Shown: positions 16,112-64,000, counted from the stretch's first letter. The stretch: DNA of 64,000 nt from an uncultured Lachnospiraceae bacterium (GCA_947629385.1 CANRDO010000001.1:107535-171534), one strand, 5' to 3'. The notes: generated by a model not told the origin, from the letters alone. Program-made: numbers and translations.

Positions 16112-16363
16112 GCTGTTATGGAGTGGTTGCCGCAGATTGCGGAGTGACCGCCGCAGGCTATGGAGCGGCTGTATGCCACGCAAACAAATTTCAGAAAGAA
16201 GTCAAGATGACTATTTTGCGAGACAGGCTCTTAAAGTATGGATTCCATATTTTTGGGAGTCTGTTTTTTGAAAAAACGCTTAAAAGGAAATACGTATGGC
16301 TTGTCTTGTTTTATGACGTATGATATGATGTGATAAGAATTAAGGTAGAGAGAGGAAAAAAAG

Positions 16364-17464
16364 TTGAATAATAAATCTCAGTTAAAAGAAATAAAGATTT
16401 GCGGATATAAATCTTTAGGGACGGATATACGGCCAATCGAATTGGAGCTGAATGATTTAAATATTGTAATAGGAGCAAATGGCGCCGGAAAAAGTAATTT
16501 TATCTCTTTTTTTAGGATGCTTTCAAATATAATGACAGGTGCACTGCAAGTCTATGTTGGAAAAAACGGATCGGCGGAGTCTTTGTTGCAGTTTGGGTCA
16601 AAAAAAACGAAGATGATTTCCGCAAGTTTGAAGTTTAGAAACAAGAAATTTACTGATACCTACGAGTTTTCTCTGGTGAAAGCAGTCAATGATACACTGA
16701 TTTTTGCGGAGGAAACGATCATTACCGATAAGCAAAAATTTGAACTGCACAGCGGGCAAAAGGAAAGCTTTTTACTGACAGAAGAAGCATCTCATAAAAG
16801 TGAGCGTGCTGTTCGTGCGATACTTTCCGGCTGCAAGACGTTTCAATTTCATGACACATCACCAGAAGCGCACATTAGAAATGCCGCGTATCTGGACAAT
16901 AATCGCTTTTTGATGAGTGACGGTGGGAACGTTGCGGCATATTTATATATGCTCAAACTGAAATATGGGCAATACTATGATCGGATTGTGGAACATGTTC
17001 GATATGTAATGCCGACTTTTCAGGATTTCTTGCTCGAGCCGCAAACTTTGAATCCCCAATGGATCAAACTTCAATGGTTCGAAAAAGGAAACAGTGAATA
17101 TGTGTTTGGACCAGAGCACTTTTCAGATGGCACGCTGCGGTTTATTGCCTTAGCAACGTTGCTTTTGCAGCCTCCGGATCTTTTGCCACAGGTGATATTT
17201 ATAGATGAGCCGGAATTGGGACTTCATCCGCAGGCGGTAGACGTATTGGCATCTATGGTACAAAAGGCAAGAGAATATACACAGGTGATTATGGCAACAC
17301 AGTCCCCAAGACTAGTGGATAATTTTGAGTGCAGGGATATTATTGTAGCAGAAAGGGACAGGGAGACGGGAAACACAACATTAAAACGTTTGGAGGAAGA
17401 TGATTTGAAGATTTGGCTTGAAGATTACAGCCTTTCTCAGATTTGGGAGAAGAATATACTCTAA
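16364..17464 (+). CDS. soluble ABC-type / OLD-like AAA ATPase (AAA_15/AAA_21-like)
   Basis: 366 aa. Walker A GANGAGKSN, signature-like SDGTLRF, Walker B/D-loop IFIDEPELGLHP, H-loop region MATQSP. No TM segments. TTG start after GAGAGG. Confidence 0.8.
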   Translation: MNNKSQLKEIKICGYKSLGTDIRPIELELNDLNIVIGANGAGKSNFISFFRMLSNIMTGALQVYVGKNGSAESLLQFGSKKTKMISASLKFRNKKFTDTYEFSLVKAVNDTLIFAEETIITDKQKFELHSGQKESFLLTEEASHKSERAVRAILSGCKTFQFHDTSPEAHIRNAAYLDNNRFLMSDGGNVAAYLYMLKLKYGQYYDRIVEHVRYVMPTFQDFLLEPQTLNPQWIKLQWFEKGNSEYVFGPEHFSDGTLRFIALATLLLQPPDLLPQVIFIDEPELGLHPQAVDVLASMVQKAREYTQVIMATQSPRLVDNFECRDIIVAERDRETGNTTLKRLEEDDLKIWLEDYSLSQIWEKNIL

Positions 17465-18045
17465 TTCCTAACACGGTTATTACAAGTACTGACAGAAAGC
17501 ATGGAAGGATATATAAAGGTGGAGTGGTAAATTATGAGCAAATTAGAAATACGATGCTGAAAACATTGGCTGTTGCATCAAAAAATAGAGATTCTTATGT
17601 GACGACGATGTTTGATTTTTATAAGTTGCCGGCAGATGTACCCGGAGTTGCTGATATTGAAAAAATAAATGATCCGTATGAAAAAGTGAGACATATAGAG
17701 AGACAAATACAGAAAGCAGAGGAATACGGGGAAGGTTTCTTTTTTCCATACATTGAATTGCATGAGTTTGAAGCAATGATTTTCTCTGATTTATCAAAAC
17801 TGAAGGAGACATATTTTGAATATGATCTTGAAGCGTTGGAAGAATGTGTTAAAGAGCAAAATAATCCGGAATTAATTAACAGCGGAATAGAAACTGCACC
17901 TTCAAAACGGATCATTAATTGTATTGACTGTTATGATAAGGCAAATGTAGGAGTAGATGTGCTTGCAAAAATCGGAGTCCAAAACATAGCAGAAAAATGT
18001 CATCATTTTTCAGAATGGCTAAAGCGTATTGAAGGGAAACTTTGA
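17443..18045 (+). CDS. DUF4276-like protein (apparently N-terminally truncated)
   Basis: 200 aa. YVTTMFDFYKLP, FFPYIELHEFEAMIFSD, TAPSKRII and KCHHFSEWLKRIE match my recollection of DUF4276. TTG start overlaps the ATPase gene by 22 nt. The frame opens only at 17422. Confidence 0.6.
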   Translation: MGEEYTLIPNTVITSTDRKHGRIYKGGVVNYEQIRNTMLKTLAVASKNRDSYVTTMFDFYKLPADVPGVADIEKINDPYEKVRHIERQIQKAEEYGEGFFFPYIELHEFEAMIFSDLSKLKETYFEYDLEALEECVKEQNNPELINSGIETAPSKRIINCIDCYDKANVGVDVLAKIGVQNIAEKCHHFSEWLKRIEGKL

Positions 18046-18208
18046 CTTCTCCGTCGGAAAGCATATGAAAGCTATGATATACTATTAATCATACTGACAA
18101 CTGCTTCGCAGCAACGCTCATTTACTGTACAAGTATGCCGCGAACGGGGGAATACAGATTGCCTGAGTTTTTCGTGACAGATGAAATTTTGTCGCTAATT
18201 AGGAGTAG

Positions 18209-18244
18209 GAGAGGGCATTGTGCGTGACACCCTCTCTTTTTTTT
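18209..18244 (+). terminator. rho-independent terminator after the ATPase/DUF4276 pair
   Basis: gagaggg (18209-18215) pairs with ccctctc (18230-18236), followed by T8. Confidence 0.7.
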
Positions 18245-18273
18245 GCTGTGTTATAGGTGATGAGAATAAGTGC

Positions 18274-18513
18274 CTATCGTAACAGCTCATCAACAGTAAT
18301 ATCCAGTACTTGGGAAATAATCTTCAATTCGATATCTGTGACAAATCTTTTGCCGGCTTCAATCCGTTGCACAGCGTTCTTGTCGATGTCAAGGCCGGCA
18401 ATCTGGAGACGGTCGGCAAGCGCGCGTTGCGATATTTTCAGATTGGATCGTAAAACAGCGATTTTTTCGCCGCATAAATTGTTTTTTCCATCACTCGTCT
18501 TATTTATGAACAT
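18274..18513 (-). CDS. XRE-family helix-turn-helix transcriptional regulator
   Basis: LRSNLKISQRALADRLQIAGLDIDKNAVQRIEAGKRFVTDIEL. ATG at 18513 lies 7 nt after GGGGG. The longer 97-aa ORF start is rejected. Confidence 0.8.
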   Translation of the reverse strand: MFINKTSDGKNNLCGEKIAVLRSNLKISQRALADRLQIAGLDIDKNAVQRIEAGKRFVTDIELKIISQVLDITVDELLR

Positions 18514-18792
18514 AAAATAACCCCCTTGGTAATTATCTGCATAAACAGTATAAAAAGTATATTGCAAAGGTTGTGTAGTTGCAAAACATATAGTAAAATT
18601 ATAAAAAAATTCGTAGCTGAGTTGTTAAAAAGTTGAAGCCCGGACTTGCAGTATATTTTTATCGGTCAGATGAAAAAGCCGATAAAAGTACGGATAAAGT
18701 ATGGATAATAATTCTGAAGGACGGTATACCGTGCCATTCGGAAGCAGTTGAACTCGGGAGATACGAAGTAGTGGAAAGGGCTTTTGAAACAT

Positions 18793-19498
18793 ATGATAAA
18801 AGGCTGGAGAGATTTATTCAGAACACATATATTGGAACGCGGGTTGGATTATTATGAGAGCCGTGCCATTAAGTCGCTGAAACAGACGGAAAAGGGATAT
18901 GAGGCGACGGTGGAGGGAACGGAAGAATATCATGTTGAGATAGAAATCAGTGACAATAGAATATATGATATGTTCTGCGACTGTCCATACGCGGAGGATG
19001 GAAATTACTGTAAGCATATGGCGGCTGTTCTTTATGAGATTACGGAAGGACAAGCTGAATCGACAGAAAGTACGTTGGATAAGCATTGAAGATTTTCTTC
19101 TAAACGAGTTTCAAGATTCGGATCTGCTAAAGCAAAGATTGAAAATGCTGGATAAGCTGATAGAGAAAGCTGGAAACGATACGGATGTCGGCAGCTGGTA
19201 TTCTGCGTATTACGGCTATGAGGATATCGTCCTGAAGCGTCTGCAGATCATGCAAAAGCTTGGATGCAGTGAACAGGAGATTTGGGAGTACAGGCAGAAA
19301 TTCAGACACTTTTCTGCTATCCGTAAGATGGAGATCGAGGAATATCTGGATAGGAATGACTATGAGAAAGCAATAGAAGTATTGCAGGAGAGCAAGAAGC
19401 TGGACCAGAAATATCCGGGGCTGGTCGCGGAATACAGCCGCCGATTGATAGAAATTTATAAGGGGATCGGACGGACTGACGCATATAAAACGGAGTAG
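18793..19498 (+). pseudogene. SWIM zinc-finger protein, frameshifted
   Basis: Frame A (to 19089) carries the SWIM CxCx(n)CxH motif (FCDCPYAEDGNYCKHMAAVLYE) and stops at DKH*. The reading continues in another frame (ORF 18950-19498, ...ISIEDFLLNEFQDSDLL...). Confidence 0.55.
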
Positions 19499-19513
19499 GT
19501 ATAAAGGCAGGAG

Positions 19514-20087
19514 GTGAGGGGATTGAAGGGAAATCTAAGCTCTGCGGATTATGAAATCATGCATGGGTCTGACATGGTGGCCAGAATAAGTCGCACAGGC
19601 AAAGCAATCGTGTATAAAGAAAAATTTCTGCCCTATGATCTTTATCTGGAGGAAAGACAGGACATTGATGATCTGGTCAATAATCTGCTCAACTTCTATC
19701 AATCATGACTTGAATACAGTGGACGAGTGCATACGGATCGACAAAAAGACGTATTACGGGATGAATATCATTGACTATCTGGTCGGAAATACAGACAGAC
19801 ATCCGGAAAACTGGGGATTCCTGGTCGACAATAGGACAAATGACTATATCTCCCTTTATCCGTTGATGGATTTTAATCAGAGTTTTTACAGCTATGAGAC
19901 GATTGATGGCGCGAATTGCCAGACGGTCTATCCCAAAAGAATGACACAGAGAGAAGCGGCGGAAGAGGCAGTCAGACAGATCGGGCTGAATCAGATACAG
20001 GAAGTGGATCCGGCGATTTTCGGAAATGAAGATGAGTGGAGAGAAATGTTCTCTAAAAGGCTTGATGTGCTGAGGCAAGCTGTTTAA
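19514..20087 (+). pseudogene. HipA-like kinase remnant (frameshifted and internally deleted)
   Basis: ORF 19514-19708 and ORF 19635-20087 lie in different frames. The latter has the HipA_C catalytic-loop-like motif YLVGNTDRHPENWGF. The total length is far shorter than a full HipA. Confidence 0.5.
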
Positions 20088-20100
20088 TTTTATATCCGGC

Positions 20101-20149
20101 TTGACATCAGGATAAGTTTATGATATATTCTCAGCACACACTGTGCTGA
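20101..20149 (+). promoter_or_regulatory. promoter of the TetR gene with an overlapping palindromic operator
   Basis: TTGACA (20101-20106), 17-nt spacer, TATATT (20124-20129). The palindrome tcagcaca-cac-tgtgctga (20131-20149) lies directly downstream. Confidence 0.65.
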
Positions 20150-20163
20150 AAGGGAGTGAAGAC

Positions 20164-20745
20164 ATGCCGGAGAGCGAACCGCTTATTCACGATGAGATGA
20201 GCGGCAGGATCGTGGACGAGGCGGCCAGGCTCGCCATGAGCGAAGGGGCAGGGGATGTCACAGTGCGGAAGATCATCCGGGCGCTGAATGTGACGAACAG
20301 AGTTTTTTACAACCGCTTTCACAATGTGGAGGAGGTACTTGCTCTCGTCTATCGGGATATGGCTGTCAGAATGCGCCAGAGCATTGTGGACCGTTTTGAT
20401 CCGGAGGGGGATTTTTTCGGGCAGATCACGGACATTGCCGCAGGAACGCTGACGCTCTCGTATAAGTTGAAGTCCGGCATGAACCAGTATGTCTTTGCTC
20501 AGGACAGTACGTCGCAGGAGAATTACCGCTGGTGGCAGGAGCGGATCTGCGGGCTTATCGAACTTGGCAAGAGCCGCGGCATTGCCAGAGCGGATCTGGA
20601 TTCCGAAACGATGAGCTATGCCATCTGGTGCTTTATCCGGGGCTACAATGCGGATGCGCTCGCAAGGGAATTGCCTGAGGAGGAAGCCGTGCGCGGTTTC
20701 CGCTATGCCTTTGGCATATTTCTGGACGGAATGAAGATAAAATAA
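20164..20745 (+). CDS. TetR/AcrR family transcriptional regulator (candidate fab regulator)
   Basis: HTH region VTVRKIIRALNVTNRVFYNRFHNVEEVL. ATG 20164 follows AAGGGAG. The gene sits immediately upstream of the fab operon. Confidence 0.8.
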   Translation: MPESEPLIHDEMSGRIVDEAARLAMSEGAGDVTVRKIIRALNVTNRVFYNRFHNVEEVLALVYRDMAVRMRQSIVDRFDPEGDFFGQITDIAAGTLTLSYKLKSGMNQYVFAQDSTSQENYRWWQERICGLIELGKSRGIARADLDSETMSYAIWCFIRGYNADALARELPEEEAVRGFRYAFGIFLDGMKIK

Positions 20746-49049: not shown

Positions 49050-50075
49050 ATGCAGTTGGATGACCGGAAGTGGACGATCCTGAAAGCGATCATCAAGACC
49101 TATCTGGAGACGGGCGAGCCGGTTGGATCCAGGACGATATCGAAATATGCGGATCTGAATTTGAGCTCTGCCACCATACGAAATGAGATGTCAGATCTCG
49201 AGGAGATGGGATTGATCCTTCAGCCGCACACCTCGGCGGGGCGTATTCCCTCTGACGCGGGCTATCGACTCTATGTGGATTACATGCTGGAGGAGAAGGA
49301 CCGCGAGGTCACGGAGATGAAGGAGCTTGTGTTGCAGAGGCAGGACAAGATGGAGCTTCTGCTCAAGCAGATGGCGAAGCTGCTCGCGGCGAACACGAAC
49401 TATGCGGCGATGATTTCCGGGCCGCAGTACCACAGGACGAAGCTGAAGTTCATTCAGCTCTCGATCGTCAGCGAGACGCAGATCCTCGCGGTGATCGTCG
49501 CCGAGGGGAATATCGTCAAGAACAAGATGCTCGAGCTTGAGCACGGACTGGATCAGAAGACGATTCTGGAGCTGAATATTCTGCTTAACACCGCGCTGAA
49601 CGGACTGACGCTCGAGGAGATCAATCTCGGGACGATCGCGAAGCTCAAGGAGCAGGCGGGTATCCACAGCGAAGTGGTCAACCGGGTGCTGGATGCGGTC
49701 GCGGAGTCGATCCAGAAGGAAGAAGAGGTCGAGATCTACACGAGCGGCGCGACCAACATTTTCAAATATCCGGAGCTGAGCAGCAGCGAGAAGGCAAGCG
49801 AGCTGATCAGCGCGTTCGAGGAGAAGAAGGATCTGGTCGATATGATCAGCCAGGACGCTCAGACGGACGAGACCGGGATCCAGGTATATATCGGGCAGGA
49901 GGCGCCGCTTGCGACCATGCAGGACTGCAGCGTGGTCACGGCCACATACGAGCTCGGTGAAGGAATGTATGGAAGGATCGGCGTGATCGGGCCGAAGCGT
50001 ATGGACTACGATAAAGTGGTCAACACGTTGCGGACGCTGATGGCGCAGCTTGATCAGATATTCAAAAAAGAATAG
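49050..50075 (+). CDS. hrcA: heat-inducible transcription repressor HrcA
   Basis: 341 aa. ILKAIIKTYLETGEPVGSRTISK and a GRIGVIGPKRMDY C-terminus. Confidence 0.95.
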   Translation: MQLDDRKWTILKAIIKTYLETGEPVGSRTISKYADLNLSSATIRNEMSDLEEMGLILQPHTSAGRIPSDAGYRLYVDYMLEEKDREVTEMKELVLQRQDKMELLLKQMAKLLAANTNYAAMISGPQYHRTKLKFIQLSIVSETQILAVIVAEGNIVKNKMLELEHGLDQKTILELNILLNTALNGLTLEEINLGTIAKLKEQAGIHSEVVNRVLDAVAESIQKEEEVEIYTSGATNIFKYPELSSSEKASELISAFEEKKDLVDMISQDAQTDETGIQVYIGQEAPLATMQDCSVVTATYELGEGMYGRIGVIGPKRMDYDKVVNTLRTLMAQLDQIFKKE

Positions 50076-50093
50076 TAAAGAGGTGAAGGACCG

Positions 50094-52869
<2,776 letters not shown>

Positions 52870-52991
52870 GCGGCGGAACTGACGAGTCAGACGTGAGAAC
52901 CGTGCGCAAAGCGAAATAAAAGGCATGCGATACCCCTGGAGCGGTAAACTTCAGGGGCATCGTTGAGTAAGCAGGCGGAGGTTAGTGGAGT

Positions 52992-54176
52992 ATGGCGGAG
53001 AGCAAACGTGATTATTACGAGGTCCTCGGCGTGGACAAAAACGCGGACGACGCGGCTCTGAAAAAAGCATACCGCGCTCTGGCAAAGAAATATCATCCGG
53101 ACATGAATCCGGGGGACGCTGAGGCGGAGAAAAAATTTAAGGAAGCGTCGGAGGCGTATGCGGTCTTAAGCGACCCTGAGAAGCGCAGACAGTACGACCA
53201 GTTTGGTCACGCGGCGTTCGAGCAGGGCGGTCCTGGCGGCTTCGGCGGCTTTGACGGATTCAATTTCAGCGGGGATATGGGCGATATCTTTGGCGATATT
53301 TTCGGTGATCTCTTCGGAGGCGGGAGACGTCGGGGCGGTTCGAACGGCCCGATGCAGGGCGCGAACCTGCGGACGAGCGTGCGTGTCACCTTCGAGGAGG
53401 CGGTCTTCGGCTGTGAGAAGGAGATCGAGCTGACGCTGAAGGATGAGTGTACGAATTGCCACGGCACCGGCGCAAAGCCCGGGACCTCGCCGGAGACCTG
53501 CCCGAAGTGCGGCGGCAGGGGTCAGGTTGTCTTCACGCAGCAGTCGCTGTTCGGCACAGTGCAGAACGTGCAGACCTGCCCGGATTGTCACGGCAGCGGA
53601 AAGATCGTAAAGGAAAAATGCCCGCATTGCTCCGGCACAGGCTACACCTCCAGCAGGAAGAAGATCAAGGTGACGGTTCCGGCCGGCATCGACAACGGGC
53701 AGAGCATCCGCATCCGAGAGAAGGGCGAGCCGGGTACGAACGGCGGCCCGAGGGGCGATCTGCTCGTGGAGGTGATCGTTGGCAGACATCCGACGTTCGA
53801 GCGCCAGGATATGGACATCTACTCGACAGTGCCGATGACGTTTGCGCAGGCGGCGCTCGGCGGAGACATCCGCATCAGCACGGTGGACGGCGATATCATG
53901 TATACGATCAAGCCTGGGACACAGACCGACACAAGAGTGCGCTTCAAGGGCAAGGGCGTTCCGTCTCTGCGCAACAAGAACGTGCGAGGCGATCATTACG
54001 TGACGCTCGTGATTCAGGTGCCGACGAAGCTGAACGAGACCGCGAAGCAGGCGCTGCGCGAGTTCGACCAGGCGACGGGCAACAGCCTGAATCAGGCTGC
54101 GAATACGGAGAAGAAGGGCGAAAAAGGAAAAAAGAAAAGCTTTGTGGATAAGCTGAAGGAAACGTTTGAGGACTGA
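52992..54176 (+). CDS. dnaJ: molecular chaperone DnaJ
   Basis: J domain DYYEVLGV...KYHPD, a G/F region and four CxxCxGxG zinc motifs. Confidence 0.97.
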
Positions 54177-54186
54177 TGAGGAAACT

Positions 54187-55140
54187 ATGCGCTGGAATAA
54201 ATTTACACTGAAGACACTGACCGAGGCCGAGGATATCGTGATCTCTTCCCTGGCGGATGCCGGAGTGGAGGGCGTCGAGATCGAGGACAAGGTGCCGCTC
54301 TCGGAGTCAGACAAGAAGCAGATGTTCGTGGATATTCTGCCGGACGGACCGGAGGACGACGGGATCGCGTACCTGAGTTTCTATCTGGAGGAGGATGCGG
54401 ACTGTGACGCGATTCTCGCCCGCGTGCAGGAAGAGCTGGATTCGCTGCGGATGTTTATGGACATCGGCGAAGGGACGATCATGCGAAGCCAGACCGAGGA
54501 TAAGGACTGGGTCAACAATTGGAAGGAGTATTTTCATCAGTTCTACGTGGACGACATCCTGATCATTCCCTCATGGGAGGAGATGAAGGCGGAAGACCGC
54601 GACAAGATGGTGATCCATATCGACCCGGGCACCGCGTTCGGGACCGGCATGCACGAGACGACGCAGCTGTGTATGCGGCAGCTGAAGAAATATGTGACGC
54701 CCGAGACAGAGCTTCTGGACGTGGGGACGGGCAGCGGTATCTTGTCGATTGCCGCGCTGAAGCTCGGCGCGAAGCACGCAGTTGGGACGGATCTCGACCC
54801 TTGCGCGATCACAGCGACGAAAGAGAATCTCGAGGCGAACGGCATCCCGGAGGGCGCGATGGACGTTATGATCGGGAATATCATCGACGATAAGCAGGTG
54901 CAGGACGCGGTTGGTTACGGAAAGTATGACATCGTGGTGGCGAACATCCTGGCGGAGGTGCTGTTGCCGCTCACGCCTGTCATCCTGAACCAGCTGAAGC
55001 CGGGCGGGATCTATATCACGTCGGGGATTATCGATGAGAAAGAGGAGACGGTTGTCGCGGCCGTGAAGGCGGCCGGACTCGAGGTGCTTGAAGTCACGCA
55101 CCAGAATGATTGGGTGTCGGTGACGGCGCGGAAATTATAA
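54187..55140 (+). CDS. prmA: ribosomal protein L11 methyltransferase
   Basis: FGTGMHETTQLC, LDVGTGSGILSIAA. ATG 54187 is preferred over 54166. Confidence 0.9.
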   Translation: MRWNKFTLKTLTEAEDIVISSLADAGVEGVEIEDKVPLSESDKKQMFVDILPDGPEDDGIAYLSFYLEEDADCDAILARVQEELDSLRMFMDIGEGTIMRSQTEDKDWVNNWKEYFHQFYVDDILIIPSWEEMKAEDRDKMVIHIDPGTAFGTGMHETTQLCMRQLKKYVTPETELLDVGTGSGILSIAALKLGAKHAVGTDLDPCAITATKENLEANGIPEGAMDVMIGNIIDDKQVQDAVGYGKYDIVVANILAEVLLPLTPVILNQLKPGGIYITSGIIDEKEETVVAAVKAAGLEVLEVTHQNDWVSVTARKL

Positions 55141-55155
55141 ATTTTGGAGAATACC

Positions 55156-55908
55156 ATGCATCATTTTTTCGTAGCGTCCGAACAGATAGGTGAGAAGTTC
55201 GTCCGCATCACAGGCGGGGATGTGAATCATATCCGAAATGTCCTGCGCATGCAGCCGGGAGAGCAGATCACGGTGAGCGACGGCGGGGACGGGAAGGAAT
55301 ACCGCTGTGAGATCGCGCAGATTGAAGAGGATTATGTCGCCGCGAAAATCATGTGGGTGGAGGAGTCCGGCGCGGAGCTTCCTTCGCGGATCTGTCTGTT
55401 TCAGGGATTACCGAAGGGCGATAAGATGGAGCTGATCATTCAGAAGGCGGTGGAGCTTGGGGCGGCACAGATCGTTCCGATGGCGACGAAGCGCGCGGTT
55501 GTTCGTCTGGACGCGAAGAAGGAGGAGGCGAAGCGGAAACGCTGGAACGCGATCTCCGCGAGCGCGGCCAAGCAGTCGAAGCGAGGGATTGTGCCTGAGG
55601 TGACGCGTGTCATGACGTTCGCCGAGGCGGTTAAATACGCGGGGCAGTTTGACAAAAAGCTGATTCCGTATGAACTTGCGGAGGGGATGGAGCGGACGCG
55701 CAAGCTGATCGATGAGATCAAACCGGGCGAGTCCGTGGCGGTCTTTATCGGGCCGGAGGGTGGATTCGACGAGCAGGAGATTGAGCTTGCGCGAACGGCG
55801 GGTGTAGAACCGCTCACGCTCGGCCGAAGGATTCTGCGCACAGAGACCGCCGGAATGGCGGTGCTGTCCGTGCTGATGTTTCAGCTGGAGGCAGGGAAAT
55901 GTTCGTAG
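55156..55908 (+). CDS. rsmE: 16S rRNA (uracil1498-N3)-methyltransferase RsmE
   Basis: MHHFFV..., FIGPEGGFDEQEIE, LGRRILRTETA. Confidence 0.9.
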   Translation: MHHFFVASEQIGEKFVRITGGDVNHIRNVLRMQPGEQITVSDGGDGKEYRCEIAQIEEDYVAAKIMWVEESGAELPSRICLFQGLPKGDKMELIIQKAVELGAAQIVPMATKRAVVRLDAKKEEAKRKRWNAISASAAKQSKRGIVPEVTRVMTFAEAVKYAGQFDKKLIPYELAEGMERTRKLIDEIKPGESVAVFIGPEGGFDEQEIELARTAGVEPLTLGRRILRTETAGMAVLSVLMFQLEAGKCS

Positions 55909-56045
55909 CAGATACGAAGCTTCCTTGCCGTTTTTGCATTCTGTGAAACAGAACGGATCTAAGCCGGAGCAGTTGTCGTGCCGTGTACGGCAAATATGCA
56001 CAAATGTATTAGAGCGAAAGACAGAAAATTTGGTTCGGAAAGCTC

Positions 56046-56074
56046 TTGACATCTTAGTCGAAGCAAAGTAAGAT
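56046..56074 (+). promoter_or_regulatory. sigma-A type promoter upstream of glyA
   Basis: TTGACA (56046-56051), 17-nt spacer, TAAGAT (56069-56074). Confidence 0.5.
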
Positions 56075-56128
56075 GAAAACACTACTGTGTTTACGGCGCA
56101 GAAAGGGCTGCGCCACGTAAACGGAAAA

Positions 56129-56158
56129 ATGCGTCGCCGGATGGGACGCATCTTTTGT
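56129..56158 (+). promoter_or_regulatory. terminator-like hairpin inside the glyA 5' leader (candidate attenuator/riboswitch expression platform)
   Basis: atgcgtc (56129-56135) pairs with gacgcat (56145-56151), followed by CTTTTGT. It is preceded by a second hairpin, ggcgcag/ctgcgcc (56095-56114). Confidence 0.45.
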
Positions 56159-56203
56159 GCTGATACGAGATGGTGTGACAAAACACAACAGGAGGACGAA
56201 GAA

Positions 56204-57442
56204 ATGTATTCACTTGAGGAGGTCAGGCGCGTGGACCCGGAGGTGGCCGACGCGATTGTGGCAGAGCAGGAGCGGCAGAACAGCCATATCGAGCTGATCG
56301 CTTCCGAGAACTGGGTGTCGAAGGCTGTGATGGCGGCGATGGGAAGCCCGCTGACGAACAAGTACGCGGAGGGGTATCCGGGCAAGCGTTACTATGGCGG
56401 CTGTGAATGTGTGGATGTGGTTGAGGATCTGGCGAGAGACCGCGCGATGAAGCTGTTTGGTTGTACGTACGCGAATGTGCAGCCGCATTCCGGTGCGCAG
56501 GCGAACATGGCGGTGTTCTTTGCGCTGCTGAAGCCGGGCGACACGGTGATGGGGATGAACCTCGCGCACGGCGGACACTTGAGCCACGGGAGCCCGGCGA
56601 ATTTCTCAGGCGCGTATTTCAATATCGTGCCGTACGGCGTGAACGACGACGGTGTGATCGACTATGAGAACGTGCGAAAGATCGCGTTGGAATGCCGTCC
56701 GAAGATGATTGTGGCGGGCGCGAGCGCCTACGCGCGTATCATAGATTTCAAGAAATTCCGTGAGATCGCCGACGAGGTCGGCGCGTATCTGATGGTGGAC
56801 ATTGCGCATATCGCCGGACTTGTGGCAGCCGGGATCCACCCGAGCCCGATTCCGTATGCGCATGTGACGACCACGACAACGCACAAGACGCTGCGTGGGC
56901 CGCGCGGAGGCATGATTCTCTCGAGCGCGGAGTTCGCGAAGGAAGCGAACTTCAACAAGGCGATTTTCCCGGGTACGCAGGGCGGCCCGCTGATGCATGT
57001 GATTGCGGCGAAGGCCGTCTGCCTGCAGGAGGCGCTGCAGCCGGAATTTAAGACCTATCAGCAGAACGTGGCGAAGAACGCGAAGGCGCTCTGCGCGGGT
57101 CTGATGAACCGCGGTGTGAAGATCGTCTCCGGCGGTACGGACAACCACCTGATGCTCGTGGATCTCACGAGTGTGGGCCGCACCGGCAAGGAGACCGAGC
57201 ACCTGCTCGACAGCGTCAACATCACCTGCAACAAGAACACGATCCCGAACGATCCGCAGTCCGCGTTTGTGACGAGCGGCATCCGTCTTGGGACGCCGGC
57301 GGTCACCTCGCGCGGCATGAACGAGGCAGACATGGATCAGATCGCCGAGGCGATTGCGTGTATGCTGAAGAATGAGGACGGCTGTGAGGAGAGAGCGAAG
57401 GCAATCGTGAAGGGGTTGACGGAGAAATATCCGTTAATCTGA
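56204..57442 (+). CDS. glyA: serine hydroxymethyltransferase
   Basis: [22 protein letters not shown] (PLP lysine). ATG 56204 lies 8 nt after GGAGG. Confidence 0.96.
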
Positions 57443-57877
57443 CCTGCCACAGCATGCTGCAGGCAATTATCGGCGGCGATGAGCATGAAAAGTCAAGCAT
57501 GGTTGCCGGCTGAAGATCCGAAGCATAAAAAGGCATATTGGTAACAGAAGAATATATCAGACGAACAGGCTGCCGCAGAACGGGTTTTCCATTCGACGGA
57601 TGGGAAAAGATACCGGGACGCGGCGGCCCTTTTCTGTGGTATACTTGCGGAAATATAGGCTGTCGGATGCTTGAGCATGGTCGCGAGAATTCAATAAGAG
57701 ACGAGGTGCTCATCGTGAGCGCAACTTTGAATAGAACACAAGTATTTGTGCCTCGATGTGTCCAAAATGTGAAAATTTAGTGTTTTTAAGAAGTCTTAAG
57801 AAAAAATCACTTTTTTTTCGGATAAGTTGTGGTATAGTGTTATAGGAAATGAATCTATCCGAAGGGAAGTATATATA

Positions 57878-59359
57878 ATGAAGAAGTTTATCATTGTCGT
57901 ACTGATCCTCGCAATTCTGGGCGGAGGCGGATATGCGGCTTATCATTTTTACTTTGAGGAGAAGCTCGGTTCGGAGGAGAGAGTCTCCTCGGACGCAGAG
58001 AATGCGGTGTACGTGGATCAGGTGTCTGTGATCACGGGATATGGCACCGGTACGGGTCTGATCGAGCGTTTCGGCGGCGAGGTCAGTCCGCAGGCGACGC
58101 TTGAGGTGAAGCTTGACGGCGACCGCAAGGTAAAGCAGTGTTATGTCAAGGAGGGCGACGAGGTCAAGGAGGGGCAGCGGCTCTTCACTTACGACACGCG
58201 GGAGGATGAGGATAAGCTCGCACAGGCCGAGATCGATATCGACAAGGCGAAGTCGGATATTGAGCTTGCCGAGCAGAGCATTGCACGGCTTGAAAAGGAC
58301 AAGAAAGAGGCGAGCGCGGACGATCAGCTCATGATCACGACAGATATCCTGTCGGCGCAGAATGAGATCAAGCAGCATGAATATGACATCCAGAGCAAGG
58401 AGCTCGAGATGGAGCAGCTCAAGGAGACGATCGACAACGCGACCGTGACAGCCGAGATGGAAGGTATTGTACAGAAGATCAATGATTCTACCGACAGCGG
58501 ACAGGATTATTATGGTTCCAGCGACAGTTCTGCATATATCACGATCCTTGCAGTCGGGGATTTTCGCATCAAGGGTTCGGTGAATGAGCAGAATCTCAGC
58601 CAGATTCAGGAGGGCATGACAATGCTCGTGCACTCCCGAGTAGACGAGACGCAGACGTGGACGGGCGTGGTGTCTGAGATTTCCACGGACAACAAGGAAG
58701 AAGAGGAGAATACTTACTATTATTCCGGGATGGACAACGATTCGGGTTCGTCCAACTATAAGTTCTACGTGGAGCTGGATGATTCGACCGGACTGATTCT
58801 TGGACAGCATGTGTATATGGAGGAGGATCGCGGGCAGACCGAGGAGAAGACCGGCATGTGGCTGGAGGAGTATTACATCATGCAGGAGGACGACGCGGCT
58901 TATGTATGGCTGGCAAATTCTTCCAATGTGCTTGAAAAGCATGAGATCACGCTCGGGGAGTATGACGAAGAGCTCATGAAATATGAGATCCTTGACGGGC
59001 TTAAGCCGGAGGATTACATTGCATATCCGATTGATACGGTGTCCGAGGGCGACCCGGTTATCTACAATGACGTTGAGTCCGGCGCCGAGGGCGGCATGGA
59101 TGACATGAGTTACGATGAAAGCGGCATGGATGATATGGGCTACGACGAAGGCATGGACGACATGAGCTACTATGAGGGCGACATGGACGGCATGAGCTAC
59201 GACGAAAGCATGGATGATATGAGCTACGATGAGGACAGCATGGACGACATGAGTTACGACGAAGGCATGGACGACATGAGTTACGATGAGGACAGCATGG
59301 ACGATATGAGCTACGACGAGGGCGACATGAGCTATGACGAGGAGGCCGGACTCGGCTGA
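57878..59359 (+). CDS. membrane-fusion (HlyD/MacA-type) adaptor protein with a Met/Asp/Tyr-rich C-terminal repeat tail
   Basis: N-terminal TM (FIIVVLILAILGGGGYAAY), lipoyl-like VKEGDEVKEGQRLFTYD, a coiled coil, then TVTAEMEGIVQKI and a beta-barrel part. Confidence 0.75.
   Translation: MKKFIIVVLILAILGGGGYAAYHFYFEEKLGSEERVSSDAENAVYVDQVSVITGYGTGTGLIERFGGEVSPQATLEVKLDGDRKVKQCYVKEGDEVKEGQRLFTYDTREDEDKLAQAEIDIDKAKSDIELAEQSIARLEKDKKEASADDQLMITTDILSAQNEIKQHEYDIQSKELEMEQLKETIDNATVTAEMEGIVQKINDSTDSGQDYYGSSDSSAYITILAVGDFRIKGSVNEQNLSQIQEGMTMLVHSRVDETQTWTGVVSEISTDNKEEEENTYYYSGMDNDSGSSNYKFYVELDDSTGLILGQHVYMEEDRGQTEEKTGMWLEEYYIMQEDDAAYVWLANSSNVLEKHEITLGEYDEELMKYEILDGLKPEDYIAYPIDTVSEGDPVIYNDVESGAEGGMDDMSYDESGMDDMGYDEGMDDMSYYEGDMDGMSYDESMDDMSYDEDSMDDMSYDEGMDDMSYDEDSMDDMSYDEGDMSYDEEAGLG
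59094..59343 (+). repeat. about nine tandem 24-30-bp coding repeats (MDDMSYDE[GDS])
   Basis: Protein tail: GMDDMSYDESGMDDMGYDEGMDDMSYYEGDMDGMSYDESMDDMSYDEDSMDDMSYDEGMDDMSYDEDSMDDMSYDEGDMSYDEE. Confidence 0.85.
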
Positions 59360-59398
59360 TTTGCGGGAATGAATATTTGACATAGAGGAGGGGTTTTT

Positions 59399-60085
59399 TT
59401 GATCCTCAAGCTAGAGCATATATACAAGGACTATATTCAAGGCAAGCTGACGGTTCCTGTGTTGAAGGATGTCTGCCTGAATGTGGATAAAGGAGAATAT
59501 GTGGCGATCATGGGACCTTCCGGCTCCGGAAAATCTACGCTGATGAACATCATCGGCTGTCTGGATCGCCCGACGTCGGGCAGCTATGAGCTGACGGGAA
59601 AGAATGTCCTTTCGTTGAACGAACGGCAACTGGCGGACGTACGTCTGCACAACATTGGATTTGTATTTCAGAACTTTCAGCTGCTTCCGCGCATGACGGC
59701 GCTGGACAATGTAGCGCTCCCGCTGATCTATGCGGGGGTTCGCAAGCGTGCGCGCCGGGCGAAGGCAAGGGAAGCGCTCATACGCGTAGGCCTGGAGGAC
59801 CGTGTCACATTCAAGCCGACGCAGCTGTCCGGAGGACAGAAGCAGAGGGTGGCGATTGCGCGCGCGATGGTGAACAAGCCAGATATTTTGCTGGCGGATG
59901 AGCCGACTGGCGCGCTTGACTCCAAGTCGAGTAAGCAGGTCATGGAATTGTTCCAGAAGCTGAACGACGAGGGAGTTACTGTGATCATGATCACGCATGA
60001 CAGCGGGATCGCCGGTTATGCCAAGCGTGTAGTTACCATCTTTGACGGTGAGCTTGCGGAGCAGAAAGGAGAGAACGAGCAATGA
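59399..60085 (+). CDS. MacB/LolD/FtsE-type ABC transporter ATP-binding protein
   Basis: GPSGSGKST, LSGGQKQRVAIARA, LLADEPTGALD. TTG start follows GAGGAGGGG. Confidence 0.9.
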   Translation: MILKLEHIYKDYIQGKLTVPVLKDVCLNVDKGEYVAIMGPSGSGKSTLMNIIGCLDRPTSGSYELTGKNVLSLNERQLADVRLHNIGFVFQNFQLLPRMTALDNVALPLIYAGVRKRARRAKAREALIRVGLEDRVTFKPTQLSGGQKQRVAIARAMVNKPDILLADEPTGALDSKSSKQVMELFQKLNDEGVTVIMITHDSGIAGYAKRVVTIFDGELAEQKGENEQ

Positions 60086-63000
60086 AGCTGAGAACTGTGT
60101 TGATCAGTGTCGTGGTGTCCGCCGCGCTGATAGGCGGTGCCGGCTATGGCGCGTACTATGCCACACAGAGTCAGAAATCTCCGATCGAGGTCGTGCCTGT
60201 AGCAAATGTCAGGGGCTATTCCTGGATGGACGAGCGACAGACTATCTACGGTTCTGTCACGTCTCAGGTGGCACAGACCGTTCAGTTGAATGAAGAATAC
60301 GGAATTGACAAGATATACGTGGAAGTCGGGGACGAGGTCAAGGAAGGCACGCCTCTTTTTTCCTATGACATGACGCTCCAGGAGCTTGAGCTCGAGATGC
60401 AGCAGCTGGAGCTTCAGACGAATGAGCTGACACTGACGCGTCTGGAAAAAGAGCTGGAGAAGCTGAAAAAGACTCCGGCGACAGCGGCGTTGGAGCGTGA
60501 TTTCCTTACAATGACTGCGTCGGCTGAGGAGAGCATGGAATCGGGCGAATCGGAAAAGATCGAAGAATCGGAAGAATTGAAGGAGCCGGACGACTCGGAT
60601 GAGCCGGATGAGGTCGTGCCGGATGAAACTGAGGATCCGGAGCCGGCTCCTGATTCAGACGGAGCGGATACCGACAGGCAAGCCGCGGACGGGCAGGACG
60701 GCGTAGCGGTTGACGACGTGGAGAATGTAGGCGGAAGCAAGGAAGGCTCTGAGCTTTCTACGGTCGAGAACAGTGTGCTCAGCTTTGAGGCGTTGGTGCT
60801 CGAACTGCAGATGACCTTCCTTACCTGTGGCGATGATCTCAAGGCAAGCGATGTAGGCGAGGCAATCGAACAGGCTGTATTGTATTATAGAAGAAATTTA
60901 GCGGATGAGAAGAAGACGGAGGAAGAGCAGGAGGATGGATCGGTAAGAGAAGTCTGCTCTCATGTACTCAAGGATTCCGTCAAGGCAGCCCTGGATAAGG
61001 AAGAGACGGAGACGCTTAGAAAGAGATGCAGGACGCTGGAGGAGTATCAGGTTGCATATGTAGAGATGCTGATCGCGGAGGCGCAGGAGCTGGAAGCGTC
61101 CGCGCTTTCTGAGGCAGTTTCGCAGATCGGAGAAGCGTATGAGCTGCTGGATACGGCCCAGCGGGATAGTGTAGAGAATATTGACCGTCTGGAGGAGCTG
61201 AAGACGCTGGCTGAAGCGGCGCAGGGTCAGGATGGTGCCAATGAGGCGGGCGAGACCAGTGGAACGGATGAGACGGATGGAGCTGCTGAGACGGACGGCT
61301 CTGCCGAGAGCGGGCAGCCGCAGGACGGCGATTCGCAGACAGACGCGGATCAGTCTGCGGACGGCGTGCGTCGGAATACGGTTACATTTGACGTGTCGGA
61401 CGGAGCTGCGGCGACAGTGAACGGCGAGGACGTCACAAACTCGATTGCGATGGCAGAGAACGGCAGGATTGTATTTGGGCTAAGTCTGGAGGACGGCTAC
61501 GAGCTTACCGAGGTTCTGGTTGACGGATCAATCCCGGCGAGAAAAAATGAAGAAAGCGACGACCCGGACGATTACATAATCGAAGGAATACAGACGAACG
61601 AGACGATTGTGTCCGTGCGGACGCAGCTTGATCCGGACGTGGAGCCGCAGAGTGGCGATGTGGCGTCGGCGATTGCGGAGGATGAGGCAGCGGGCGGCGC
61701 TGCGAACATAAGTGAGCCTGCCGGCGCAGACGGTACGGGCGACGGAGCGACCAACGGAGACGGACAGAACGGCGAGACTGGCGGAGACGCGCAGAATGGC
61801 GAGACCGGCGGAGACGGACAGAATGACGAGACCGGCGGAAATGGTACGGGCAGCGGGGATACAGGTGAGGGATCGACGAACGGAGAAGGCTCGGGCGGAT
61901 CGACCGCTGAGGATAGCCAGAGCGGCGAGCCGACGAAGGGAAAGGAATTCACGGTTACGATCAATCCGGGCAATAGGACGGAGAAGCACGAAGTCGGAAG
62001 ACTGGTTCCTCTGCAGGCGGATCTGAGCGATGTGACACTTGTGTTTATGGGATGGAGCGTTGTGCCGACCACAGCAGCTTCCGGAGAAGGCGGACAGGCG
62101 AGTGCACCGACGGCTGACGGAAACGGACAGACGGGTACACCGACAGCCGGAAATGACGCTCGTACGGTTGAGCTGACTTCTGAGGATGTCGCGGGCGGCT
62201 ATGCGAGCTTTACGATGCCGGAGTTTGATGTGACGGCGACCGCAAAATATGAGAATGCGCCGGATGCGATTGAGAGCTATGTGACGACATTCCTTGCGGA
62301 GGCGGAAAAGCTTCTGGCGGAGAATGCGGCACAGACTTATTCCGATCAGGGAAAGGACTTCCTGACAGAGCTGGAGAGCGCCATCGTATTTTATCAGCAG
62401 TGGCTCTCAAATCCTATGGAGGAGATTCTGGAAGAGTCGGAGACGACGGCTCCCGATATGGAGAAATATCAGCTTCTTGGCAATGTGAGCGATTACCTGA
62501 CGGCGCATGGCAAGGAATTCCAGGTCAAGCAGCTTAAGGAGCGCTACAGGGAGCTCTGCTTGTTATACGCAAAATCCCTGTTCGAGGCGATCAATCCTGC
62601 GGCTATCGATAAGGACCTGCTCGAGAAGGCGTTGGATACTTACGAGCAGCTTGGCGAGAATTGGAGAAAGAAGCTGGAGAACCGCTGGAAGGAGGAGCAG
62701 GCAGATCTGGCGGAGCAGAACGGGCAGCCCTGGGAGGAGAACAAGAAGGGCAAGAAAATTCCTCCGGAGAGCTTTCTGGGGATCGGGGATACTCTGAAGG
62801 CATACTCTGTCTTGCAGATGTTCCAGGAGTTTTTGAATCTTCCGCCGGACACGCCGGAGGAAGAACGATATGATATGATTCTGGACATTTGGGCCGGCTA
62901 TCTGGATCTCAGCGAAGCACAGAAGCTTGTGGTGGGCAGTGATCCATCCTTTGCCGAGACGTTTCGGCAGTATGGGCTTTGGGAGGATGAGCCGGAGACA

Positions 63001-63798
63001 GAGTTCCCGGATTATGGCGGCGATGACTATGGCGATTACGGCGGAGACGAGCCGATGTACACGGCCGCCGAGCTCGCGGAGATGATCAAGGATAAGGAAC
63101 AGGAAATCAAGTCCTGCACGCTCGACGTCAGACAGAGTGAGCTCGATCTGAGGCAGAAGCAGCGGATCATCGACGGAAAGGTCGTCAAGAGTACGATGGA
63201 AGGCACTGTAGTCAGCGTAGGCAATCTGAATGGAGAGTCGGATGAGGATTACTTTGTAAAGGTTGCAAACGAGGCAGGGCTGTACGCGAAGGGTTCGATG
63301 AGCGAGCTGGCGCTGGAGAAGCTCAATGTCGGAGATACGATCACTGGGATGCTGACGACAAACGGAACGGAATTCAGTGCGGTGATCAAGGAAGTATCCG
63401 AGTACCCGGACGGGAGCAACGACGCTTACTATTACGGGCAGGAGAACACAAACGCTTCCTATTATCCGTTCTATGCGCTGATCGAGGATACGGAAGGCCT
63501 GGAAGAGGGAGAAGCAGAAATCTACCTTGCCGGGGGAAGCGGCGGGCAGGACGACGCGATTTACCTGGACAATTATTTTATTCGTTCCGAGTCGGACGGA
63601 AGGACCTACGTCTACAAGAAGGGCGACGATGGCAAGCTGACGAAGCAGTACGTTAAGATAGGCAAAAAGACAGGTTACTCGCAGGAGATCAAGGAAGGTC
63701 TCAGCCTTGAGGACATGATTGCGTTCCCATATGGCAAGAATGTCAAGGAGGGCGCGAAGACGAAAGACGTAGATATGCTGCAGGATGCCTTTATGTAG
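60082..63798 (+). CDS. giant membrane-fusion-type adaptor protein with an insertion of about 860 aa in the coiled-coil hairpin
   Basis: Residues 1-130 give a TM helix, lipoyl half KIYVEVGDEVKEGTPLFSYD and helix 1. Residues from about 993 give helix 2, lipoyl half GKVVKSTMEGTVVSVG and a beta-barrel. The middle is acidic low-complexity sequence plus helical and beta modules. The start overlaps the ATPase stop (ATGA). Confidence 0.7.
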   Translation: MKLRTVLISVVVSAALIGGAGYGAYYATQSQKSPIEVVPVANVRGYSWMDERQTIYGSVTSQVAQTVQLNEEYGIDKIYVEVGDEVKEGTPLFSYDMTLQELELEMQQLELQTNELTLTRLEKELEKLKKTPATAALERDFLTMTASAEESMESGESEKIEESEELKEPDDSDEPDEVVPDETEDPEPAPDSDGADTDRQAADGQDGVAVDDVENVGGSKEGSELSTVENSVLSFEALVLELQMTFLTCGDDLKASDVGEAIEQAVLYYRRNLADEKKTEEEQEDGSVREVCSHVLKDSVKAALDKEETETLRKRCRTLEEYQVAYVEMLIAEAQELEASALSEAVSQIGEAYELLDTAQRDSVENIDRLEELKTLAEAAQGQDGANEAGETSGTDETDGAAETDGSAESGQPQDGDSQTDADQSADGVRRNTVTFDVSDGAAATVNGEDVTNSIAMAENGRIVFGLSLEDGYELTEVLVDGSIPARKNEESDDPDDYIIEGIQTNETIVSVRTQLDPDVEPQSGDVASAIAEDEAAGGAANISEPAGADGTGDGATNGDGQNGETGGDAQNGETGGDGQNDETGGNGTGSGDTGEGSTNGEGSGGSTAEDSQSGEPTKGKEFTVTINPGNRTEKHEVGRLVPLQADLSDVTLVFMGWSVVPTTAASGEGGQASAPTADGNGQTGTPTAGNDARTVELTSEDVAGGYASFTMPEFDVTATAKYENAPDAIESYVTTFLAEAEKLLAENAAQTYSDQGKDFLTELESAIVFYQQWLSNPMEEILEESETTAPDMEKYQLLGNVSDYLTAHGKEFQVKQLKERYRELCLLYAKSLFEAINPAAIDKDLLEKALDTYEQLGENWRKKLENRWKEEQADLAEQNGQPWEENKKGKKIPPESFLGIGDTLKAYSVLQMFQEFLNLPPDTPEEERYDMILDIWAGYLDLSEAQKLVVGSDPSFAETFRQYGLWEDEPETEFPDYGGDDYGDYGGDEPMYTAAELAEMIKDKEQEIKSCTLDVRQSELDLRQKQRIIDGKVVKSTMEGTVVSVGNLNGESDEDYFVKVANEAGLYAKGSMSELALEKLNVGDTITGMLTTNGTEFSAVIKEVSEYPDGSNDAYYYGQENTNASYYPFYALIEDTEGLEEGEAEIYLAGGSGGQDDAIYLDNYFIRSESDGRTYVYKKGDDGKLTKQYVKIGKKTGYSQEIKEGLSLEDMIAFPYGKNVKEGAKTKDVDMLQDAFM
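61756..61836 (+). repeat. three tandem 27-bp coding repeats (GD[GA]QN[GD]ETG)
   Basis: Units at 61756, 61783 and 61810: ggagacggacagaacggcgagactggc / ggagacgcgcagaatggcgagaccggc / ggagacggacagaatgacgagaccggc. Confidence 0.85.
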
Positions 63799-63849
63799 CG
63801 GGAGGTATGGGATGAAGGACGAAACGGTTACGGCAGGGGGTGTTGAGAC

Positions 63850-64000
63850 TTGCTTGAGAATATAAGACTGTCGTTTCAGGGGATATGGTCGCACAAGATG
63901 CGTTCTTTCCTGACGATGCTCGGTATCATCATCGGTATCGCCTCCATTATTTCAATCGCGTCGACGATCAAGGGCACAAACGAGCAGATCAAGAATAACC
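63850..64000 (+). CDS. MacB/FtsX-type ABC transporter permease, N-terminal fragment (runs off the window)
   Basis: My translation from TTG 63850 reads MLENIRLSFQGIWSHKMRSFLTMLGIIIGIASIISIASTIKGTNEQIKNN, a typical MacB-permease N-terminus and TM1. It is absent from the ORF track because it is shorter than 60 aa. Confidence 0.75.
   Translation, partial: MLENIRLSFQGIWSHKMRSFLTMLGIIIGIASIISIASTIKGTNEQIKNN

Follow-up and report, generated by a model that had tools for sequence, protein, structure and literature searches.

A conserved MacB-type transporter locus of Clostridia with two diverged membrane-fusion adaptors, one carrying a large insert at its hairpin tip

Four genes at the end of a 64,000-nt stretch of DNA from an uncultured Lachnospiraceae bacterium (GCA_947629385.1 CANRDO010000001.1:107535-171534; the whole stretch is called the window below, and positions count from its start) encode a MacB-type ATP-binding cassette (ABC) transporter together with two different membrane-fusion proteins (MFPs), which we term adaptor 1 and adaptor 2. 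The same four genes are found in the same order in many related gut bacteria, and adaptor 2 contains an insert of about 860 aa at a position where other MFPs have the tip of a simple alpha-hairpin. With a probability of about 0.55, we regard the locus as coding for a conserved four-component envelope pump of Clostridia, in which two anciently diverged and non-equivalent adaptors act together on one pump.

All four open reading frames (ORFs) lie on the plus strand, as do the features described below. A six-frame ORF list placed adaptor 1 (493 aa) at 57878-59359, the ABC ATPase or nucleotide-binding domain (228 aa, TTG start) at 59399-60085, adaptor 2 (1238 aa) at 60082-63798, and the beginning of a MacB/FtsX-type permease (TTG start) at 63850-64000, where the window end cuts the gene. 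These are exactly the coordinates and the strand that a first-pass annotation, made from the sequence of the window, had given. The genes are closely spaced, with a 39-nt gap between adaptor 1 and the ATPase, a 4-nt overlap between the ATPase and adaptor 2, in which the adaptor 2 ATG overlaps the ATPase TGA (ATGA), and a 51-nt gap between adaptor 2 and the permease. The first-pass annotation had also pointed to the remainder of the permease and to the genes downstream of it. Both could be read from a contig (L001) that carries an identical adaptor 2 and covers the complete locus beyond the window end: the permease has 419 aa when complete, the next gene 3' of it is rpsB, and glyA is located 5' of the cluster. 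The assumption of a monoderm host is in line with the nearest genome, a Lachnospiraceae metagenome-assembled genome (MAG) with 96% identity, as the Lachnospiraceae belong to the Clostridia.

Judged by the sequences of its ATPase and its permease, the transporter is a MacB-type (type VII) ABC transporter. The ATPase, which is of the MacB/LolD type, matched ABC_tran with E = 2.4e-35 (122.5 bits, cut-off 25), and its best NCBIfam match was the ATPase part of MacB (E = 4e-84). The 50 permease residues that are encoded within the window already pass the MacB_PCD cut-off of Pfam (30.2 bits versus 27), and the complete L001 permease contains MacB_PCD as well as FtsX, which agrees with the earlier assignment of this gene. 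Over its full length, the L001 protein can be aligned with MacB (5lil, E = 3.5e-53) and with Spr0695 of Streptococcus pneumoniae (5xu1_M, E = 1.5e-44); FtsX and LolC are less similar to it than true MacB and Spr0695.

The sequence of adaptor 1 clearly marks it as an MFP homologue, with an anchor, a split lipoyl domain, an alpha-hairpin, a beta-barrel, and a membrane-proximal domain in linear order, followed by an acidic C-terminal tail. Its ATG at 57878 is preceded by the ribosome-binding site GAAGGGAAG 8 nt upstream, and we prefer this start because a longer TTG ORF (57827) would begin inside the conserved promoter region described below. The hydrophobic N-terminal segment, a transmembrane (TM) anchor at approximately residues 4-26, can be read directly from the sequence. 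The best general model was TIGR01730 RND_mfp (E = 3.8e-22, residues 65-381, 78.7 bits versus a cut-off of 94.9), and the MacA, DevB, EmrA, and HlyD-type models of NCBIfam also matched. Among solved structures, Spr0693 (5xu0, E = 3.6e-7) and MacA (E = 1.3e-5) were the best relatives, with residues 83-305 aligned. HlyD_D23 of Pfam-A scored 28.2 bits at a cut-off of 30, and the precomputed annotation lists PF25984 BSH_YknX and PF25990 Beta-barrel_YknX. The protein has an isoelectric point (pI) of 4.05. Its acidic tail of (G)MDDMSYDE units is encoded by tandem DNA repeats with periods of 30 and 57 (59092-59342, Tandem Repeats Finder); adaptor 1 of relatives likewise has acidic tails, whose sequences are unrelated to that of the window. 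In a 96%-identical relative, adaptor 1 is 8 aa shorter (485 versus 493 aa), which may reflect variation in repeat number.

With adaptor 2, a search of Pfam-A alone returned only Biotin_lipoyl_2 below its cut-off (E = 0.009), and the assignment of this protein as an adaptor therefore rests on BLASTP, profile, and Foldseek searches. Residues 57-96 and 1006-1216 align with adaptor 1 (BLASTP E = 2e-15, 27% identity), and Spr0693 was matched with E = 1.6e-6 by the single sequence and with E = 1.6e-13 by a 16-member family profile (5xu0). When the AlphaFold2 (AF2) model was compared with solved structures using Foldseek, 50 of the 50 listed matches (E <= 0.001) were MFPs, with MacA (5nik_D, E = 1.2e-8) in first place. 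Alignments and model together identify adaptor 2 as an MFP homologue with a split lipoyl domain, a beta-barrel, and a membrane-proximal domain, and at the level of sequence the two adaptors are ancient paralogues and not recent duplicates. The first-pass annotation had claimed two different MFP genes in a compact MacB-type cluster and had considered that one of the proteins might lack any adaptor match; the homology searches agree with the former, and both proteins are MFP homologues. The expected hidden Markov model matches were obtained (HlyD_D23 in adaptor 1, Biotin_lipoyl_2 in adaptor 2), although the local Pfam-A cut-offs were not reached.

The anatomy of adaptor 2 deviates from that of adaptor 1 at the hairpin. 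Its N-terminal part (residues 1-130; 60082-60471) comprises a TM anchor (residues 1-27), which again is directly visible as a hydrophobic segment, and, according to model and family alignment, an N-terminal lipoyl half that extends to about residue 97. An ascending stalk helix is predicted at residues 98-130 (33 aa, AF2). Residues 57-96 of this part match residues 67-106 of adaptor 1, and TIGR01730 as well as type_I_hlyD matches were found at residues 49-158. The C-terminal part (residues 995-1238; 63064-63798) begins with the predicted descending stalk helix (residues 995-1030, 36 aa) and continues with the other lipoyl half, the beta-barrel, and the membrane-proximal domain; the Spr0693 match covers residues 1022-1132. 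Instead of a simple two-helix alpha-hairpin, an insert of about 860 aa (residues 131-994; 60472-63063), which AF2 and the family alignment place at the hairpin tip, lies between the lipoyl halves. The description of both adaptors as split lipoyl halves around a coiled coil was thus correct for adaptor 1, which has the MFP order, but not for adaptor 2, in which the insert separates the stalk helices. The insert, which is the most unusual feature of the locus, had not been mentioned in the first-pass annotation. As modelled, adaptor 2 is a variant MFP architecture. The mean predicted local distance difference test score (pLDDT) of the model was 71, with 80-95 in ordered parts and less than 50 in linkers. 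The protein is strongly acidic (263 Asp+Glu versus 97 Lys+Arg, pI about 4.05). In the clade with giant inserts, the TM segments of both adaptors end in a similar Gly/Tyr motif, which is LGGGGYAAYHFYF in adaptor 1 (57878-57960) and IGGAGYGAYYA in adaptor 2 (60082-60165) of the window; a common site of contact with the permease or an exchange of N-termini might explain this similarity. In the short-insert clade, adaptor 1 is instead a lipoprotein.

The insert consists of an acidic disordered linker, helical domain A (residues 221-386; 60742-61239), a linker, beta domain 1 (residues 432-516; 61375-61629), a Gly/Asp/Glu-rich linker, beta domain 2 (residues 622-725; 61945-62256), helical domain B (residues 727-963; 62260-62970), and a short acidic linker, with the domain borders taken from the AF2 model and the family alignment. 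The ordered domains of the insert reach a pLDDT of 85-95. An hhalign comparison (probability 96%, E = 1.2e-9) showed homology between helical domains A and B. When modelled alone, helical domain B reached a pLDDT of 94.9 and a predicted TM-score (pTM) of 0.90, and a Foldseek comparison with the PDB gave no significant fold match (best E = 0.039, TM-score <= 0.29, mostly designed helical repeats). An exhaustive phmmer search detected this domain in just 26 proteins among 1.84 billion cluster representatives; these proteins have 497-1241 aa, and their lengths fit full-length giant adaptors or possible fragments. Sequence searches and models thus point to a new, family-specific domain family without a solved structural relative.

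The beta domains of the insert differ from each other in their distribution. Beta domain 1 is confined to the closest relatives in the family alignment, and hhalign found no relationship between it and beta domain 2. The latter may be B-repeat-like: Flg_new_2 (InlB B-repeat, PF18998) was matched in 8 of 16 adaptor 2 homologues (best E = 3.8e-11), and the corresponding region of the window protein, which itself matches PF18998 only with E = 2.9, aligns with the matching homologue region and is predicted as a beta domain. Pfam searches with the four insert domains gave only noise, and no hydrolase or other catalytic domain was detectable by Pfam in the insert. Short forms of adaptor 2 have an insert at the same position with other content, namely Pro/Glu-rich linkers and an unrelated small domain, and the hairpin tip is therefore a hot spot of insertion. 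Such short forms of 535-706 aa were seen in L071 (7966-9735) and in four more distant contigs (L076-L079). In one of them (P0315), there is a faint Peptidase_M23 match that may just reflect similarity to the lipoyl-like fold.

To determine the distribution of the locus, we scanned one genome per GTDB species, which yielded 65 loci, and mapped six proteins by tblastn. In all 50 loci that were long enough to hold the cluster, the order was adaptor 1, ATPase, adaptor 2, and permease; the remaining 15 of the 65 were cut by contig ends and had consistent partial orders. Nearly all 65 loci are labelled as Lachnospiraceae or unclassified Clostridiales. The closest one is from a rabbit-gut MAG with 96% identity, and cultured carriers include Parablautia sp. 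Marseille-Q6255, strain 1XD42-54, and Hominifimenecus sp. rT4P-3, with Robinsoniella as a further culturable one. Most loci have glyA upstream and rpsB downstream. The length of adaptor 2 varies between about 1240 aa and about 550-600 aa. A search that started from the short Hominifimenecus form added the four distant contigs L076-L079, one of which was labelled Oscillospiraceae by its submitter. These have other neighbouring genes but the same four-gene order, and the overlap of ATPase and adaptor 2 genes is kept in all four. A lipoprotein signal with a lipobox is present on adaptor 1 of these distant loci, whereas their adaptor 2 retains the TM segment. The arrangement is no peculiarity of the window's genome: about 60 species-level genomes of relatives share it as a conserved module, as do contigs of more distant Clostridia.

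With the C-terminus of the window adaptor 2 as query, the adaptors fall into separate orthologous groups, as adaptor 2 proteins were recovered with 34-59% identity (E = 1e-25 to 1e-82) and adaptor 1 proteins with 25-37% identity (E = 1e-9 to 1e-19). The duplication of the adaptors therefore predates these lineages. Across 52 homologues of adaptor 2, identity to the window protein was 73-78% in the N-terminal and 59-68% in the C-terminal MFP part, about 40% in the helical domains of the insert, and about 30% in the linkers, which were often missing. Conservation tracks function, with the MFP parts ahead of the helical domains and these ahead of the linkers. The neighbouring genes are housekeeping genes that differ between clades, and a tblastn search of 72,556 plasmids with the adaptor 2 C-terminus gave no match and therefore no sign of plasmid carriage. 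In one metagenome contig (L007, 9206-15968), the permease is missing after adaptor 2, and an acetyltransferase gene and a Flp/Tad-type pilus cluster are found instead, which is either a rearrangement or an assembly chimera. In public records, the proteins carry generic names, namely "efflux RND transporter periplasmic adaptor subunit" or "biotin/lipoyl-binding protein".

The approximately 110 nt upstream of adaptor 1 (57766-57877) are strikingly conserved, with long invariant runs in an alignment of 9 species whose adaptor 1 proteins are just 58-80% identical, whereas the distal part of the 435-nt spacer between glyA and adaptor 1 is not conserved. The block at 57766-57838 contains TTGTGAAAATTTAGTG, then the repeat TTAAGAA-N3-TTAAGAA (57786-57802), a weak -35 element, and an extended -10 element TGG-TATAGT (57830-57838), which is invariant as TGTGGTATAGT, and further conserved sequence lies upstream of the repeat. 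Allowing up to 2 mismatches, the repeat occurs once in the window at an expectation of 0.16. These features suggest that the block is probably a regulated, activator-dependent promoter with a putative activator site. We also considered recognition by an extracytoplasmic function (ECF) sigma factor and rejected it, because the would-be -10 motif GTC is not conserved. From adaptor 1 to the window end there is no terminator-like site on the plus strand, which gives no sign of the separate transcription units that the first-pass annotation had named as a refuting case, and plus-strand promoter-like matches inside the genes are at chance level only. Rfam searches gave no RNA family at E <= 0.1 in 50000-64000 and none at gathering score in the whole window, and no known riboswitch or leader was found in the 435-nt spacer after glyA. 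Downstream of the permease, the 218-nt spacer in front of rpsB (L001, 15029-15246) has no terminator-like hairpin. The rpsB gene has its own promoter-like sequence TTGCGC-17-TATAAT, which is followed by a long leader, and transcription of the pump operon may continue into rpsB-tsf.

As the adaptor genes are interleaved and overlap with the transporter genes, lie behind a single conserved, putative promoter, are strictly co-retained, and differ in the anchoring of their products, we favor one complex with non-equivalent adaptors. We infer that the adaptor ring would be mixed, with three adaptor 1/adaptor 2 heterodimers as one possible arrangement, and that labor would be divided between the two proteins. 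Permease and ATPase would be coupled to the ring through a transmembrane contact made by adaptor 2, which is always TM-anchored and whose start overlaps the ATPase gene. The ring would be completed by adaptor 1, which has a TM anchor here but is a lipoprotein in distant relatives. The stalk helices of adaptor 2 (33 and 36 aa) are about as long as we estimate the hairpin helices of adaptor 1 to be from its sequence. It is therefore geometrically plausible that both adaptors contribute to one helical barrel from whose top the inserts emerge, and the insert could project from there into or through the cell wall. In Gram-positive bacteria, the systems YknWXYZ and Spr0693-0695 confer protection from peptide toxins and from antimicrobial peptides (PMC5985334), and by analogy we infer that the substrate of the pump may be a compound active on the membrane or in the wall zone, for instance an antimicrobial peptide, which would be removed from the membrane's outer face. 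Cationic substrates might be captured or guided by the insert and the tails, both of which are strongly anionic.

Several points weigh against this reading. The proposed contact between adaptor 1 and adaptor 2 is deduced from sequence, and the conserved co-occurrence of the two genes would fit alternative homo-oligomeric adaptors equally well. In the copies of Pfam-A and NCBIfam that were searched, neither adaptor reaches a curated cut-off, and the adaptor 2 model, with a pTM of 0.41, is uncertain as to how its domains are arranged relative to each other. Downstream of the permease in L001, no terminator marks the end of the transcript. The neighbouring genes give no clue to the substrate, and the idea of acidic capture is speculation.

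The two adaptors could instead be alternatives, each forming a homo-hexamer on the same MacB dimer, one as a plain version and one with a large surface module, and each with its own substrate or wall context. The characterized MacA, YknX, and Spr0693 are indeed homo-hexamers (PMC5985334, PMC8277102), each adaptor here has kept a complete MFP core, and with TM anchors and a similar GG-x-GY-x-AY motif on both proteins of this clade, either could in principle contact the permease. However, the compact interleaved cluster has no terminator-like site on the plus strand and only chance-level internal promoter matches, and there is therefore no evident way to choose between the adaptors. In addition, both genes are kept in every complete locus, and the distant adaptor 1 is a lipoprotein that lacks the TM segment, whereas MacA and Spr0693 cannot stimulate the ATPase without their N-terminal TM region (PMC5985334). 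We therefore consider such a switch between adaptors unlikely. A slightly smaller chance, in our view, has the idea that adaptor 2 is mainly a pump-anchored surface or wall effector and not part of a conduit. Its extracellular module would be moved by the ATPase cycle of MacB in an FtsEX-like manner and would thereby act on a target in the wall or sense it, next to adaptor 1 as the conventional adaptor. The idea is attractive insofar as mechanotransmission from the outer face of the membrane is how MacB-family transporters work and FtsEX and LolCDE are non-efflux members of this family (PMC5985334), as inserts of homologues contain B-repeat domains of the type found in surface proteins next to a conserved family-specific helical domain, and as the locus is in a vertically inherited core region by housekeeping genes and not in an accessory resistance island. 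The lack of any detectable catalytic domain in the insert speaks against it, as does the permease, which is closest to true MacB and Spr0695 and not to FtsX or LolC, and an insert content that is wholly different between clades fits poorly to one fixed effector function.

A more far-reaching proposal, which we regard as improbable, is a machine that spans the monoderm envelope, with the mixed ring as its base, with the tip modules of adaptor 2 as a gated extension through the peptidoglycan that functionally replaces the outer-membrane channel of tripartite pumps in Gram-negative bacteria, and with the acidic linkers and tails as a trap for cations or peptides. It is hardly credible that mere chance placed the genes side by side, that they form unrelated transcription units, or that adaptor 2 is decaying or mis-called. 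The sub-threshold Pfam-A result for adaptor 2 and the fact that about a quarter of this protein is low-complexity and disordered might be taken as signs of decay, but its ORF of 1238 aa is intact and conserved in dozens of species, its MFP parts are 59-78% identical, its ordered domains are confidently predicted, and the gene order is invariant.

The component families of the locus are all known already, and comparison with characterized systems places the pump close to two Gram-positive ones, both of which were correctly described in the first-pass annotation as having a single adaptor gene (PMC5985334). Spr0693-0695 of S. pneumoniae (5xu0/5xu1) likewise keeps its ATPase separate from its permease of 419 aa and has an MFP with a TM anchor; Spr0693 is the best sequence match with solved structure for both adaptors, and Spr0695 is among the top permease matches. 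It has, however, one adaptor gene with an ordinary hairpin, whereas the locus described here has two paralogues, one of which contains the tip insert of approximately 860 aa. YknWXYZ of Bacillus subtilis and Bacillus amyloliquefaciens is also a four-component MacB-type system, and the precomputed Pfam families on both adaptors (PF25984, PF25990) are derived from YknX. Its fourth component YknW is a four-TM Yip1-like protein and not a second MFP, and the L001 annotation contains no YknW-like gene at this locus. Escherichia coli MacAB-TolC has a homologous permease and ATPase, and MacA is the top fold match of adaptor 2, but its MacB is a fusion of nucleotide-binding domain and permease, and its single adaptor docks to TolC in an outer membrane, whereas the host here is a monoderm without an outer-membrane partner. 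FtsEX with its coiled-coil partners belongs to the same ABC superfamily and also has an extracellular partner with coiled-coil elements; the permease described here is much closer to MacB, and there is no hydrolase-related domain.

Mixed adaptors, too, have precedents, and in this respect the word "unusual" was too strong. TriA and TriB of the Pseudomonas aeruginosa resistance-nodulation-division (RND) pump TriABC-OpmH are encoded by two MFP genes in one operon, are both required, and are thought to be hetero-oligomeric with distinct roles (PMC4338810). With two MFP genes in the transporter operon, this is the best functional analogy, but it differs from the present locus in its RND transporter, its Gram-negative host, its outer-membrane channel, and the absence of a large adaptor insert. 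It is an analogy and not a case of membership, because the transporter here is a MacB-type ABC transporter and the host belongs to the monoderm Clostridia. Work from the Zgurskaya laboratory reportedly indicates that TriA and TriB differ in their roles towards the outer channel and the transporter. A Firmicute case is DSY0927 of Desulfitobacterium hafniense (PMC4446572), which we compared by description only; it combines two different MFP units with an ABC-type transporter, but these units are fused in one polypeptide and not encoded by separate, interleaved genes. The Vibrio cholerae VarABCDEF system was rejected as a precedent, since VarB is a 40-aa MFP remnant. A literature search on two-adaptor MacB systems in Firmicutes, Clostridia, and Lachnospiraceae returned general reviews only, and we found no paper on a two-adaptor MacB operon or on these giant adaptors. 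New are therefore the conserved two-adaptor ABC module in monoderms, the hairpin tip as an insertion platform, and the family-specific helical domain.

Elsewhere in the window, at 16000-20000, the GC content drops to 0.40-0.42 from about 0.55. This island contains genes for an AAA_21 ATPase (16364-17464), a DUF4276 protein (17443-18045), a HipA_C-like fragment (19635-20087), and a TetR regulator (20143-20745), and it looks like a horizontally acquired insertion that is possibly defence-related or of the toxin-antitoxin type.

The function of MFP adaptors in bacteria without an outer membrane is openly debated and acknowledged as an open question (PMC5985334, PMC4338810, PMC4446572). The locus provides a natural experiment in this respect, as two non-equivalent adaptors are kept on one MacB pump across many abundant gut Clostridia, and in adaptor 2 the hairpin tip, which is the TolC-contacting part in Gram-negative bacteria, has been turned into a platform for large, lineage-specific extracellular modules. 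The helical domain of the insert is a new family for structural and functional studies, and the conserved promoter region offers a handle for finding the inducing signal. If the mixed ring is confirmed, ABC pumps and monoderms would have to be added to the RND pump for which a division of labor between adaptors has been demonstrated so far. If even the wall-spanning arrangement should prove true, the locus would represent a previously undescribed class of cell-wall-spanning export apparatus that is widespread in gut Clostridia.

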